Origin: Escherichia phage PP01
Sequence record: NC_054930.1
Reading direction: 5' to 3' (one strand)
Length of the DNA stretch: 64,000 nucleotides
Part shown: positions 16,945 through 21,719 of the stretch, in pieces
How positions within the stretch are numbered: the first letter of the stretch is position 1
Layout: the number at the start of each line of letters is the position of its first letter
Made by a program: the position numbers and the translations under genes
Notes under the pieces: generated by a model
Seen by the model: only the letters and a program-made list of their open reading frames with translations
What the model was told of the DNA's origin: nothing
Databases searched by the model: none

Positions 16945-16948
16945 CAAT

Positions 16949-16978
16949 GGGGACCTTTCGGTCCCCGTGTTTTTATTT
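16949..16978 (+). terminator. Terminator after gene 54
   Basis: GGGGACC-TTTC-GGTCCCC hairpin followed by GTGTTTTTATTT. Confidence 0.6.
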
Positions 16979-17263
16979 ACGGAATGAAATAAAAGCAGCA
17001 ACTGAAGCAACTAAACTGTCTTCAATATAAACTTCAATTTTTACCGGAGCTTCTGACTCAAATTTACCTGTTACTACACCTTGGAAAATGCTTTCAGTCT
17101 GCTCTGGCTTTGAAAAATTTTCAGAAGGAAAAATTCCGAACTTTTTATCTGTTCCAAAAATTTTGATAAATTCATCATAAACTGCTTCATTAAAAGCGTT
17201 ATCAGCAGGAATAACGCCTTCAACTACGAGTTCTTGACCTAAAAAGCGCAAAGAAGATTTCAT
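16973..17263 (-). CDS. Hypothetical protein (alt.-3-like position)
   Basis: 96-aa ORF with ATG and GAGGA SD, directly downstream of an early promoter. Confidence 0.55.
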   Translation of the reverse strand: MKSSLRFLGQELVVEGVIPADNAFNEAVYDEFIKIFGTDKKFGIFPSENFSKPEQTESIFQGVVTGKFESEAPVKIEVYIEDSLVASVAAFISFRK

Positions 17264-17294: not shown

Positions 17295-17323
17295 ATTATA
17301 ACACAACACGAGGGACTTGTAAA
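17295..17323 (-). promoter_or_regulatory. T4-type early promoter
   Basis: Minus strand GTTTACA-N17-TATAAT; part of a 55-bp cassette repeated at 32857-32911. Confidence 0.6.
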
Positions 17324-19381
17324 CTACATTTTGAACTTTTTAGACATTCCGTTGATGTTAACCAAAGAAGCCAAGATTTGAGAAACTTCATTTTCCTCTT
17401 CTTTTGATTCTTCTACAAGGAATTGATTAAATCCAGCCATTGGACGAACTTCACCAGTTTCCATTAGATGGTCGCCATCATATACCGATTCTTTTAATTG
17501 TTCAGAAGGAGGAACGATTGTGCCTTCGATTAAATACTTATTATAAGCAGTTTCTTTCATCATGTACGTACTCACTTTATTAATCTTCAGCAAAATTCCA
17601 CGCGGTAAAATAACTTCAGCTTCTGACGGAAATCCTGATAAATGCCCTGGAACGATAACTTTGATTCGCTCAGCTCCTTTAATTACCATACCCACGCTAG
17701 TTTCAGCATCTTCATTCGCATAAGCAGAATGACTGCCCATATGCATTAAATCTTCAGCATCAACGGAACCTTCTCCTTCACCAGAAAATACTGCACCGGA
17801 ATCATCTAGAGCCATATAGTTTTTACCATACTCACCGAAGATATTTGGTTTAAGCGATGTGGATACGAAGTTCTTGAAATAGAACATTTTATTTTCAATA
17901 TTATGACGTAAAGTTTTAAAGGTAACTTCTTGTCCACGGTAAAGTGTAGTTCCTGGAGGAAGAACTGATCCTTTGGCAAAGGCAGAATCCATTGTCTCGA
18001 TGTGTTTAATAGCTCGTTCCATGTATTCTTCACGTGTAGAATCCGGTTTACCTAAAAGGAACGAGTTCATTTCAACATATGAATCTGCACAATAATCTTC
18101 AATTACATCAGACTCAGCCTGAGTTAATCCTTTTGGAGTTACTTCAGTACTTGCATATTCATACGCTTGAGAAGCAGACTCATTAATCAATTTATAAACG
18201 CCATTCATGACAAATTGAATAATAGCTACCTTTTCATCTGGCGTGGCTTTAGAACCTTTAACTAAATCATTGACGATTTTCTTAATAACATCAAAGCTAT
18301 TAGAAATATTAATGTCAGCAAGATCGCTTAAAATTTTATCAGTTTTATAATCAAAAAATTCTTTATTCTTTAAATATTCTTGAGAACCTTGATATGTTAT
18401 ATCGCTCTGTAACTTGATAGATGGATCACGTAAACGTGCATGAGCCAATGCAATATGATTTCGGAAGCTTTCTAGTTCATAATCACTAGATTTAAAACGA
18501 GAAGCACTTCTCATACCACCGATAGCTCCTTTGCTGAAGTTTGAACCAACCTGAATAACGCCGGAGTTCATTGGTCCTTCTGCTTTATATACCGGAACTT
18601 TAGATTCAAACTCTTGGTATTTCTTAGCAGCGAAGCTATCACCCTGAAGTGAAGCATCGACGGTAGAGTATTGAGCTTGTGCTGCTAATCGACGACTAAT
18701 TTTAGTTTTCTGAATAACAGCTTGATCCGTGCGCTTATCATTTTCTAAAGCAATAGAAGCGGCAACAGCGACAGCTTTAGGAACAGCATTACCTGTTTTA
18801 ACATCTACATAAACATCACCAACCTTTGATTCAACTTTTGTGAATAACTCAGTTGAAATAGGAGGTACACCTGGAATGTCTTCTAAATTGGCATTTTTAC
18901 GGTAAACCATAATATATGCATATTTCTTATCATAGTCCCAGATTTCCTTTAAAAGAACATATCGACCTGCTCCTTTAGTACGTACTAAACGGTCGGCAAT
19001 AACTTGCATTTGACGAGCTGCGCCATTTGTTTTACTCTTTAGTACGCGGAATAAGCATGCGTCAATTTTGTACTGTTTCATTGTCTGAAGAGCAGTATCA
19101 AAAACCGCATTAATGACACCAATTGGATTTCCACCCAAGTTTTTAAGTTTAACTAATGATAGTTTCTCATTAACACCTATCATTACGATATGCATCATTT
19201 TATCGCCTGGCTTAACGTTTTTATTCGTATCACCGCCAGAGGTGTATGTACAAAATCTAAATCCAGGAAGCACGCTTTCTTCGCCTGCTTGAATAGCAAA
19301 AATTTGAGGTATTTTATGCTTAGGATTTAAGTTAACAACCGGCGCCGAAGCGCCGTCAAATAATTCTGTAATAAGTTCCAT
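17324..19381 (-). CDS. Alt-family mono-ADP-ribosyltransferase paralog (distal copy)
   Basis: 685 aa; Alt-like N-terminus MELITELFD...; R-S-E motifs LYRGQ, FVSTSL, EAEVILPRG. Confidence 0.8.
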   Translation of the reverse strand: MELITELFDGASAPVVNLNPKHKIPQIFAIQAGEESVLPGFRFCTYTSGGDTNKNVKPGDKMMHIVMIGVNEKLSLVKLKNLGGNPIGVINAVFDTALQTMKQYKIDACLFRVLKSKTNGAARQMQVIADRLVRTKGAGRYVLLKEIWDYDKKYAYIMVYRKNANLEDIPGVPPISTELFTKVESKVGDVYVDVKTGNAVPKAVAVAASIALENDKRTDQAVIQKTKISRRLAAQAQYSTVDASLQGDSFAAKKYQEFESKVPVYKAEGPMNSGVIQVGSNFSKGAIGGMRSASRFKSSDYELESFRNHIALAHARLRDPSIKLQSDITYQGSQEYLKNKEFFDYKTDKILSDLADINISNSFDVIKKIVNDLVKGSKATPDEKVAIIQFVMNGVYKLINESASQAYEYASTEVTPKGLTQAESDVIEDYCADSYVEMNSFLLGKPDSTREEYMERAIKHIETMDSAFAKGSVLPPGTTLYRGQEVTFKTLRHNIENKMFYFKNFVSTSLKPNIFGEYGKNYMALDDSGAVFSGEGEGSVDAEDLMHMGSHSAYANEDAETSVGMVIKGAERIKVIVPGHLSGFPSEAEVILPRGILLKINKVSTYMMKETAYNKYLIEGTIVPPSEQLKESVYDGDHLMETGEVRPMAGFNQFLVEESKEEENEVSQILASLVNINGMSKKFKM

Positions 19382-19384
19382 GAT

Positions 19385-21481
19385 TTATCCTTGAACGAAC
19401 TTGTAAGGCATGTTTGTAATATCTATGCAAGACGCAATAATTCCAAGAGATGATTCTACTTTCTGTTTAATATTTGATGAAACAAATGATGCAAAGTCAA
19501 CTCTGTCTTCTATTTCAATATCATCTGTCATTGCAACTACTTCGCCGGTTTCCATTAGACGGTCACCGTCATAAATTACTGATTCGGTGAGTTCTTCCGT
19601 AGTCATAACTTCAGCTTGAATGAGTTTTGTATTATTAGATGTTGTTCCGTCATTATTAGAAGCATCAGTTATTTTATTAACTTTGACCATCAATCCGCGT
19701 GGTAGAATAACTTCAGCTTCTGTTGCTATTCCGAGACTTCCTGGATATACAACATTAACTTTATGAGCTCCATCAATTGCCCATCCTATTTGAACTTTAA
19801 CGTATTCAGGATTTTCTTTATACGCTCTTATTTCGTTTGGATTGATAGTTATTCCTTCTTCATTTTTATCAACTGTTAATTCATTACGAGCTTCTGGTTC
19901 TAAAAGACCTATACCAGCATGTGTAATTCCAAAACGTCCAAAAATGATAGGAGTTAAAGAAGTAGATACAAAATTTCTGAAATAGAACACTTTATTTTTA
20001 ACTAGTGCTTCGTATATAGGAGCAGTCATGCTTTGAGCACGATAAACTGTAATGCCTTCTGGTATACGGTCACCATTTTCAAAAGCTGAATCTAAATTAT
20101 TTATCGCAGATTCAATTTCTTTTTCACTCATTACATCATATCGTTCTGGATTGTAGCGGCCTAAAAGAAGATTATTGATGTCAGTATATCCTGATCCACA
20201 ATACTCTCTAATGCCGCGCTTTTGCGATGGAGTATATTTAGAACCATCACGTGCAATGGTAATATCAATCATTGGACCTGCACCAATTCCAGAAAAGCTA
20301 TAAATCATTCGTTTGAGGAATTTAGTTTTTGCTGCGTTCCAGGAATTTTTAGTTATTTCTTCCCAGACTTCATCTGGCTGCCCTTTACGAGTTTTATTAT
20401 GTTTATCAAGCCAATTATCTTTATATTCTTCAAAGAATTGATTAACAGCTGCTGCGTATTTCTCTAAACATTTTATTGAAGTAGTTGGTTCATTTTTAAT
20501 CGCATTAAGAATTACATCTTTAATTTTTTCAGAAACTTCATTAACCTCACTTTTTGAAAAGAATTTATAATCATAGTGAAGTTCATCTGCAGTTCCTTCA
20601 GCAATAATTTTTGCTGCCTTAGTTTTAGAAGCTAATGAATTAATTCCAAGTTTCATTTCTTCTGCTTCAGGAATTAAAGGAGCTGTAGCAGGTTTATTGA
20701 AATTAGCTGCGGTAGATTCATACTTCTGGAATAATTCACTTTCAAATCTAGAAGATTCTAATGATTGACTTTGCGCAATTGCTCTACGGGAAATTTTAAC
20801 TTTAACGATTACAGCTTGGTCAGAACGTTTATCATTTTCTTGTGCAATAGAAGCAGCAATTGCCTCATTTTTAGTTACTTGAGCTCCAGTATCTTTATTA
20901 ATATAAACATCGCCGACTTTCGATTCAACTTTAGTAAAGAGCTCGGTACTAATTTCCGGAACTCCTGGAATGTCTTCTAGTGATACATTTTTGCGATGTA
21001 TAAGAATATATGCATACTTTTTATCATAATCCCAGAGTTCCTTAAGAAGGACGTATCTGCCACCTGAACGACTACGGATAAGTCTATCAGCAATAACTTG
21101 AATTTGTCGAGCTTGACCAGCAGTTTTAGACTTAAGAATACGAAGCATGCAGGCATCAATTTTATACTGACGCATTGTTTGCATTGCAATAGTAAAAACT
21201 GAATTGATATAATTAATTGGGCTTGGACCGAGACCTTTTAATTTAGCAATTGAACCTTTAGCAGTTAATGTAAAAGGAACAATATGCATCATTTTATCGC
21301 CCATTTTTAAATCGCGATTAGTATCACCTCCAGATGTATAGGTACATAAACGAAAGCCTGGTTGTTCAATTGCGTCATCAACGTGAACTGAAAAAATTTG
21401 TGGTATTTTCTTCTTTGGATTTAAGTTTGTAATCGGAAGAGTAGTATCTTCGTCAAATAATTCTGTAATAAGTTCCATCAT
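19385..21481 (-). CDS. alt: Alt mono-ADP-ribosyltransferase (copy adjacent to gene 30)
   Basis: 698 aa; N-terminus MMELITELFD; motifs VYRAQ, FVSTSL, EAEVILPRG; late promoter upstream. Confidence 0.8.
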   Translation of the reverse strand: MMELITELFDEDTTLPITNLNPKKKIPQIFSVHVDDAIEQPGFRLCTYTSGGDTNRDLKMGDKMMHIVPFTLTAKGSIAKLKGLGPSPINYINSVFTIAMQTMRQYKIDACMLRILKSKTAGQARQIQVIADRLIRSRSGGRYVLLKELWDYDKKYAYILIHRKNVSLEDIPGVPEISTELFTKVESKVGDVYINKDTGAQVTKNEAIAASIAQENDKRSDQAVIVKVKISRRAIAQSQSLESSRFESELFQKYESTAANFNKPATAPLIPEAEEMKLGINSLASKTKAAKIIAEGTADELHYDYKFFSKSEVNEVSEKIKDVILNAIKNEPTTSIKCLEKYAAAVNQFFEEYKDNWLDKHNKTRKGQPDEVWEEITKNSWNAAKTKFLKRMIYSFSGIGAGPMIDITIARDGSKYTPSQKRGIREYCGSGYTDINNLLLGRYNPERYDVMSEKEIESAINNLDSAFENGDRIPEGITVYRAQSMTAPIYEALVKNKVFYFRNFVSTSLTPIIFGRFGITHAGIGLLEPEARNELTVDKNEEGITINPNEIRAYKENPEYVKVQIGWAIDGAHKVNVVYPGSLGIATEAEVILPRGLMVKVNKITDASNNDGTTSNNTKLIQAEVMTTEELTESVIYDGDRLMETGEVVAMTDDIEIEDRVDFASFVSSNIKQKVESSLGIIASCIDITNMPYKFVQG

Positions 21482-21502
21482 ATCCTCTCTAGTGTTTATT
21501 CT

Positions 21503-21510
21503 ATTTATAA
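21503..21510 (-). promoter_or_regulatory. Late promoter (TATAAATA on minus strand) for alt
   Basis: Plus strand TATTTATA; about 22 nt upstream of the alt ATG. Confidence 0.55.
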
Positions 21511-21532
21511 AATTAAAGGCCCGAAGGCCTTT
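21511..21532 (-). terminator. Terminator hairpin between gene 30 cluster and alt
   Basis: AAAGGCC-TTCG-GGCCTTT hairpin followed by A/U-rich run on minus strand. Confidence 0.5.
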
Positions 21533-21719
21533 AATAATCTAGTGGTAAGAGAGTACGGTATATTTCAAACTTTGGCCCTTTTTCATAGGCATCAAATGTT
21601 TCTGTAAATTTATTATAAGCATACGCATCTACAAATTCGAGAATGACTTGCGATACCGAAGTAGAAACATCTCCACCTTCTTTTTGAGCTATAACAATTG
21701 TTTCTAAGTAAGCTTTCAT
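21531..21719 (-). CDS. Hypothetical protein
   Basis: 62-aa ORF; ATGA overlap with the gene 30 stop. Confidence 0.5.
   Translation of the reverse strand: MKAYLETIVIAQKEGGDVSTSVSQVILEFVDAYAYNKFTETFDAYEKGPKFEIYRTLLPLDY

Follow-up and report, generated by a model that had tools for sequence, protein, structure and literature searches.

Alt of bacteriophage T4 is the textbook example of an injected takeover enzyme, a virion-packaged mono-ADP-ribosyltransferase that modifies Arg265 of the RNA polymerase alpha subunit as well as other proteins (PMC2988021). Mass spectrometry of T4 virions has established that the prohead protease gp21 cleaves Alt after ITE-6 and LTE-619, removing 6 and 63 residues (PMC5694885; reviewed in PMC9026906). 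Together with ModA and ModB of the same phage, Alt falls into the R-S-E clade of phage ADP-ribosyltransferases (ARTs) that act on host proteins (PMC5512222), although the Mod enzymes are small, expressed early, unpackaged and devoid of the N-domain and propeptides of Alt. [quoted passage not shown] The duplicated loci of 44RR (ORF187c/188c), RB49 (ORF183c), Dhakavirus C6 and 6phi13/SHFML-11 are alike in their tandem arrangement, but copy number and alleles vary among them. Here we describe the alt locus of Escherichia phage PP01, which lies in a stretch of 64,000 nucleotides from sequence record NC_054930.1 (hereafter the window) and in which two Alt-type genes, the upstream and the downstream copy, follow one another on the minus strand. 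The genes surrounding them identify the window as a Tequatrovirus (T4-like) genome.

The explanation that we favor, and consider likely, is an old tandem duplication of alt in which both copies have been kept functional: two late-expressed, capsid-packaged and gp21-processed arginine mono-ADP-ribosyltransferases would be injected together, the downstream one being an old paralogue with probably different or additional targets. Co-transcription, packaging, cleavage, enzymatic activity and the difference in targets are what we infer for this pair from its sequence. The duplication itself is already known, since it is annotated in RefSeq and has been remarked on in print; as a sequence finding it thus adds little to hundreds of annotated records and to an observation and a conclusion already published (PMC13600099).

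Two intact and diverged copies

An initial annotation had described this part of the window as two intact, tandem Alt-family paralogues on the minus strand, and both the identification and its coordinates held up. Both open reading frames (ORFs) match, over their whole length, the PHROG family phrog_802 (“Alt-like RNA polymerase ADP-ribosyltransferase”), the downstream protein with residues 1-685 on profile positions 2-674 of 674 (E = 2.7e-255) and the upstream protein with residues 1-696 (E = 8.4e-272). Against Pfam PF03496 (ADPrib_exo_Tox), whose curated cut-off is 23.4 bits, the downstream copy scores 73.1 bits (2.5e-20) and the upstream copy 129 bits (1.8e-37), and the ADP-ribosyltransferase fold of this family was found as well. 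A comparison with NCBIfam matched no family to either copy. The Pfam family PF26846 is precomputed on nearly all full-length Alt homologues (P0001-P0120) and probably spans the N-domain.

The R-S-E catalytic signature is likewise present in both proteins, as are the other motifs quoted in the initial annotation: the downstream copy reads TLYR482GQ, NFVS507TS509L and SE587AE589VILPRG, and the upstream copy TVYR480AQ, NFVS505TS507L and TE587AE589VILPRG. An exhaustive HMMER search of 1.84 billion proteins returned only 115 representatives of the Alt family and provided a family alignment of 59 sequences. All 59 share the Arg of the YR motif, the leading Ser of S-T-S, the two Glu of E-x-E and the P-R-G behind them, and the four catalytic residues of each copy (R482/S507/E587/E589 downstream, R480/S505/E587/E589 upstream) stand in such invariant columns; catalytic residues have been lost in neither. 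Two deviations from the catalytic motifs occur in Dhakavirus C6, whose ORF206 has S-A-S in place of S-T-S and whose ORF207 has WR in place of YR at the catalytic Arg.

Outside phages, the closest known systems are the C3-like and binary-toxin arginine ADP-ribosyltransferases (Vis, C3bot, iota/CDTa, VIP2 and Certhrax), which share the catalytic fold and the R, S-T-S and E-x-E motifs. They differ from the Alt proteins in showing only 10-25% identity to them and in being secreted, whereas Alt has a phage-specific N-domain, a helical center, propeptides removed by a protease, and delivery by the capsid. HMMER aligns the YR and EYE motifs of CdtA with the YR and EAE of the upstream copy. Sequence searches of the PDB gave weak CdtA-type matches only for the upstream protein and no match for the downstream one, and no solved Alt structure was present in the PDB copy searched. 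The Glu-x-Glu motif points to arginine as the modified residue.

The initial annotation gave the lengths as 685 and 698 residues. Both ORFs exist, the upstream one being open from position 21481 (19385..21481, minus strand, 698 residues, beginning MMELITELFD), but the evidence on its start favors the second ATG and hence 697 residues: this start is annotated in all seven public orthologues examined and in T4 alt, and its Shine-Dalgarno spacing from GAGAGGA is better than that of the first ATG.

The two copies are 41% identical overall (BLASTP, E = 5e-161), which rules out a trivial recent duplication, and the downstream copy is 41-42% identical to its upstream partner and to T4 Alt. The divergence is uneven along the protein. 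The shared N-terminal sequence noted at the outset amounts to 68% identity over residues 1-238; for the center (239-415) the figure is 17%, for the catalytic domain (416-622) it is 34%, and the C-terminal tail has 37%. The downstream center is 11-17% identical to the upstream and T4 centers, and the upstream center is 32% identical to that of T4 Alt and 98% to that of T6. An all-against-all BLAST of central segments yielded zero cross-hits between the downstream and upstream classes: the downstream center finds P0009, P0011, P0012, P0014 and P0123, and the upstream center finds T4 Alt, P0122, P0130, P0141 and P0153. Profile comparison of the two classes with hhalign gave a probability of 0.2%, from shallow profiles of six sequences each. 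Pfam recognized nothing significant in the isolated N-domain or the isolated center, and an N-domain profile found no match among PDB sequences, so that a GNAT-like fold of the N-domain, considered by fold similarity and by the acetyl-CoA binding motif Q/R-x-x-G-x-G/A, is a tentative lead.

The claim that the central segments are unrelated therefore stands as far as sequence is concerned, but not for structure: AlphaFold models of both copies predict a near-identical series of helices at the same place, from about residue 248 to 468. The AlphaFold2 model of the downstream copy has a mean predicted local distance difference test score (pLDDT) of 81.7. When each model was compared with a common target, the BFVD model of SP18 Alt, rather than superposed directly on the other, both matched it globally, with template modeling (TM) scores of 0.74/0.80 over 660 columns for the downstream copy and 0.68/0.75 over 680 columns for the upstream copy. 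On these models, the likeliest interpretation is that the two centers are one helical scaffold that has diverged past recognition by sequence.

Both copies are under strong purifying selection. Among seven phages (this window, PE37, RB3, ime09, phiD1, SF2-1 and A2), both ORFs are intact with unchanged lengths in every one, and the ratio of non-synonymous to synonymous substitution rates (dN/dS, Nei-Gojobori) comes to 0.038 in the upstream gene and 0.039 in the downstream one. By segment, dN/dS ranges over 0.007-0.013 for the N-domain, 0.076-0.081 for the center, 0.000-0.024 for the catalytic domain and 0.05-0.11 for the C-terminal tail; the downstream ART domain has a value of 0.024, and the upstream one has no non-synonymous difference at all among the seven. 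Neither copy is decaying. With a dN/dS of 0.04, an intact ORF in each of the seven phages and catalytic residues that do not vary, a pseudogene is ruled out.

The T4 deletion and the spread of the two-copy locus

T4 Alt (NP_049811, 682 aa) and T6 Alt lie at the same locus, between alt.1/gene 30 and alt.-3/gene 54, and they resemble both window copies in having the same length, propeptides at both ends, the N-domain and the R-STS-ExE motifs. By its position, the upstream gene is orthologous to T4 alt, and their 70% identity is spread as a mosaic: the N-domain (99%) and the C-terminal tail (92%) are nearly those of T4 Alt, whereas the center (32%) and the catalytic domain (65%) depart from it. 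Over residues 240-600 it is 99.2% identical to T6 Alt, and this T6-type allele occurs at no less than 95% identity (at least 95%) in 315 phage records. The downstream protein is 42% identical to T4 Alt overall, and their centers have no detectable similarity.

The initial annotation was right about what T4 has in place of the second copy, namely a single alt and, behind it, two small ORFs, alt.-1 and alt.-2. These (NP_049810 and NP_049809; L001:5066-5451) align to the first 338 nt of the downstream gene with about 95% nucleotide identity; the T4 remnant shows a frameshifting deletion of 1 nt, then lacks exactly 1,699 bp, and matches again from 19 nt ahead of the stop codon, this last stretch being included in the 95%. 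Both edges of the 1,699-bp deletion carry the motif CTAAA. The PHROG families of the alt.-1 and alt.-2 fragments also score far better on the downstream than on the upstream protein. Judged from these alignments, the alt.-1/alt.-2 remnants and the downstream gene are one and the same gene, destroyed in T4 and intact in the window, and because the alignment shows a frameshift and a 1,699-bp loss, the T4 state is derived by deletion of a full-length paralogue. The T4 RefSeq note instead has alt.-1 and alt.-2 arise by duplication of alt's “first part”, which the alignment rejects.

The whole 4.9-kb locus recurs in 336 phage records with 90-99% identity and at least 80% coverage, and its RefSeq label is “Alt-like RNA polymerase ADP-ribosyltransferase (x2)”. 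The central 267 residues of the downstream protein are found at 95% identity or more (at least 95%) in 400 records, including T6, RB3, ime09 and AR1, and the T4-type deletion junction in 91, including T4 strains, RB55, RB59 and the natural isolates HY03 and SG1. The upstream allele (T4- or T6-type) is seen in all four possible pairings with an intact or a deleted downstream gene: T6-type and intact in T6 and the window, T4-type and intact in AR1, T4-type and deleted in T4, and T6-type and deleted in SG1 and HY03. In this genus, two copies are thus what most phages have, and the single copy of T4 is the exception. Nearly all experiments on Alt have been done in T4, that is, in the minority deleted state, whereas most relatives, T6 among them, have another Alt-type enzyme that is intact, strongly conserved and for which no targets are reported in the literature searched. 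In practice, this is worth bearing in mind when phage ADP-ribosylation is studied and when the genomes of therapeutic phages are considered.

Comparison with another genus shows that the parts of the protein have different histories. Dhakavirus C6 has three tandem Alt paralogues in the same locus (ORF206-208; L011:721-6981). N-domains group by genome: those of the window copies are 68% identical to each other and 42-46% identical to any C6 copy, and those of the C6 copies are 66-87% identical among themselves. The downstream protein is 51% identical overall to C6 ORF206, with 45% in the center and 59% in the catalytic domain, and its N-domain is 45% identical to that of the C6 gene in the same slot. 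The upstream protein, compared with C6 ORF208 (L011:4897-6981), has 66% identity in the center, 95% in the catalytic domain (19604-20242) and 46% in the N-domain. The center and catalytic domain thus group by slot across genera, and the N-domain groups by phage genome. Judged by this pattern, the N-domain seems either to co-evolve with each phage or to be homogenized within it, and the pattern is consistent with a role of the N-domain in incorporation into the prohead core of its own phage. It further suggests that the effector half is an older module that is sometimes exchanged, the 95% against 46% identity pointing to exchange between genera. One may tentatively go further and view the alt locus as a cassette system, in which a genome-specific N-module, maybe GNAT-like, would fit the protein to the prohead core of its own phage and be combined with interchangeable helix-bundle/ART effectors that travel from genus to genus, the downstream effector having host targets of its own, possibly anti-phage defense proteins. 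If this were true, the cocktail of enzymes injected by a T-even phage would differ according to whether it has one, two or three copies.

Expression, packaging and target range

Both genes would be transcribed into a single late message from a TATAAATA promoter, the T4 late-promoter consensus, ahead of the upstream gene. This is the sole copy of TATAAATA on the gene strand in the locus, and there is none between the two alt genes. Just upstream of it lies a terminator-like hairpin that was read directly from the sequence and was not called by a consensus terminator scan; a conserved terminator upstream of alt has been described in T4-like genomes (Nolan 2006, PMC1524935). No terminator-like sites were found on the gene strand between the alt copies or inside either gene. 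The junction of the two genes reads AAGGA-TAA-ATC-ATG, with AAGGA inside the end of the upstream gene and 6 nt before the downstream ATG, and the junction of T4 alt with alt.-1 is identical. Given this arrangement, translation of the downstream gene from a bicistronic late message, by way of AAGGA at the 3-nt junction, is likely.

The same N-terminal targeting propeptide and N-domain would then place each protein in the prohead core, where gp21 would cut each at I-T-E/L (residue 6; the slash marks the cut) and at L-x-E/S (residue 631 or 632). The N-terminal motif MELITE/LFD is kept in both copies, and so is the aligned L-x-E/S site, as LTE632/S upstream and LKE631/S downstream. The upstream site, TEELTE/SVIYDGD, has the sequence of the LTE-619 site of T4 Alt, and T6 and AR1 have LEE at this position. 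Across the family, the P1 glutamates of both gp21 motifs (E6 and E631 in the downstream protein) show conservation of 90% or more, and confidence is low in the models of both copies exactly around the C-terminal cleavage site. These motifs argue for a downstream protein that is packaged and cleaved like T4 Alt. The mature proteins, of about 69 and 70 kDa, would be ejected with the DNA, and in the host each would use NAD+ to mono-ADP-ribosylate arginine.

As to what the two enzymes modify, different target ranges are plausible from their sequences. The downstream copy probably modifies other host proteins than the upstream one, or a broader range of them, because it has a distinct central helix bundle, an ART domain only 34% identical to that of its partner, and F584 in place of Ile at the ADP-ribosylating turn-turn (ARTT) loop. 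The residue concerned lies three positions before the first catalytic Glu. It is Phe in the downstream protein and Tyr in C6 ORF206 of the same class, Ile in T6-type and Pro in T4-type proteins, and Tyr in CDTa (GYAGEYE), which thus shares an aromatic residue at this turn with the downstream copy. In C3-like toxins the ARTT turn is a substrate-recognition element. By analogy with them, the difference at this turn is the most concrete hint in the sequence that the substrates differ.

Several points weigh against two functional enzymes with different targets. Over the window as a whole, TATAAATA is no more frequent than expected by chance, so that the late-promoter call depends on position and on T4 precedent. 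The ARTT argument leans on an analogy with C3 and iota-like toxins, and both copies could modify overlapping targets. The literature searched contains genome-annotation remarks about the downstream protein and no experimental data on it. Finally, T4 and 90 further records lack the gene, and alt is non-essential in T4 (PMC9026906), so the downstream function would be dispensable under some conditions.

A more specific version of the idea, and a subset of the explanation by different targets, is that the downstream enzyme serves mainly to inactivate host anti-phage factors, such as the toxins of toxin-antitoxin systems, and not to reprogram transcription, and that its center has been shaped by an arms race. 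Among the substrates of T4 Alt is the toxin MazF. Within the family, variability is greatest in the central segment, and many representatives match the query only in residues ~2-245 and in a C-terminal stretch starting at ~320-420; effector modules appear to have been exchanged between genera, as the catalytic and N-domain identities to C6 indicate, and related genera hold one to three tandem copies. However, within each allele class the center is under purifying rather than diversifying selection (dN/dS 0.08), and this counter-defense version is rather doubtful.

It is unlikely that the downstream gene is a redundant dosage copy, one whose targets are in essence those of the upstream Alt and which is mildly useful as extra injected enzyme and easily lost. 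Such a copy would fit the circulation of the T4-type deletion in 91 records including natural isolates, the occurrence of all four combinations of alleles, the identical catalytic motifs and the dispensability of Alt in T4. Yet 34% identity in the catalytic domain and the lack of central similarity, under a dN/dS of 0.04, are not expected of it; the downstream type is moreover a distinct lineage across genera, by its 59% and 45% identity to C6 ORF206, and the residues at the substrate turn differ. Very improbable is a downstream product that is made but left unpackaged, or that enters the core in a structural or inactive role, since its N-terminal propeptide (MELITELFD) is identical, its N-domain and both cleavage motifs are conserved, its catalytic residues are intact and its ART domain is strongly constrained, even if packaging and cleavage have been shown by experiment for T4 Alt alone (PMC9026906, PMC5694885) and the predicted mature proteins, of 69.1 and 70.2 kDa, would co-migrate, so that a second Alt species may have gone unnoticed on gels.

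Coordinates and neighboring genes

The features of the locus are listed in the table.

Features of the alt locus of phage PP01, with positions counted from the first nucleotide of the window
Feature	Position	Strand	Details
alt.-3 (DUF5498)	16973..17263	-	96 aa; Pfam PF17602, 1.4e-64; T4 annotation; downstream neighbor, context
Downstream Alt paralogue	17324..19381	-	685-aa ORF; labeled alt.-2 in RB3 and ime09
Downstream C-terminal propeptide (predicted)	17327..17488	-	residues 632-685, after L629-K-E631/S; aligned to T4 LTE-619/S
Downstream ADP-ribosyltransferase domain	17516..18136	-	residues 416-622; F584 at ARTT turn
Downstream E587-A-E589	17615-17623	-	catalytic
Downstream S507-T-S509	17855-17863	-	catalytic
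Downstream R482	17936-17938	-	catalytic
Downstream variable all-helical center	18137..18667	-	residues 239-415; helical in model, high pLDDT; dN/dS 0.08
Downstream N-terminal propeptide (MELITE/L) and shared alpha/beta N-domain	18668..19381	-	residues 1-238
Gene junction	19382..19392	-	AAGGA 19388-19392, stop TAA 19385-19387, 3-nt spacer, ATG 19379-19381
Upstream Alt gene (alt, T6-type allele)	19385..21478	-	697 aa counted from second ATG
Upstream C-terminal propeptide (predicted)	19388..19582	-	residues 633-697, after L630-T-E632/S
Upstream ADP-ribosyltransferase domain	19604..20242	-	residues 413-625; PF03496, CdtA alignment, invariant columns; I584
Upstream E587-A-E589	19712-19720	-	catalytic
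Upstream S505-T-S507	19958-19966	-	catalytic
Upstream R480	20039-20041	-	catalytic
Upstream variable helical center, T6 class	20243..20764	-	residues 239-412; helical in model
TATAAATA, T4 late-promoter consensus	21502..21509	-	24 nt upstream of second ATG of upstream gene
GC-rich hairpin AAAGGCC-TTCG-GGCCTTT, then AATTTT	21515..21532	-	overlaps alt.1 stop; terminator-like, just upstream of late promoter
alt.1 (Phage_blade)	21531..21719	-	62 aa; Pfam PF24647, 1.9e-29; T4 annotation; upstream neighbor, context

In the window, genes 48 and 54 on the plus strand are followed on the minus strand by alt.-3, the downstream copy, the upstream copy, alt.1 and the gp30 DNA ligase gene, and this order, 54/alt.-3/alt copies/alt.1/30, matches that in T4, T6, RB3 and AR1. 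Naming of alt.1 orthologues is inconsistent: several public records call the product a “siderophore-interacting protein” or hypothetical, and PF24647 is the “Phage blade protein” family.

On the other side of the pair, alt.-3 has a near-consensus sigma-70 early-type promoter of its own (17295-17323, minus strand; 11 of 12 positions plus TG), which lies directly past the stop codon of the downstream Alt gene. In T4, mutants with a C-terminal extension of Alt.-3 escape the CmdTAC defense system (PMC11618068). Between the converging gene 54 and alt.-3, positions 16947-16968 hold a bidirectional terminator-like hairpin of nine pairs, six of them G-C.

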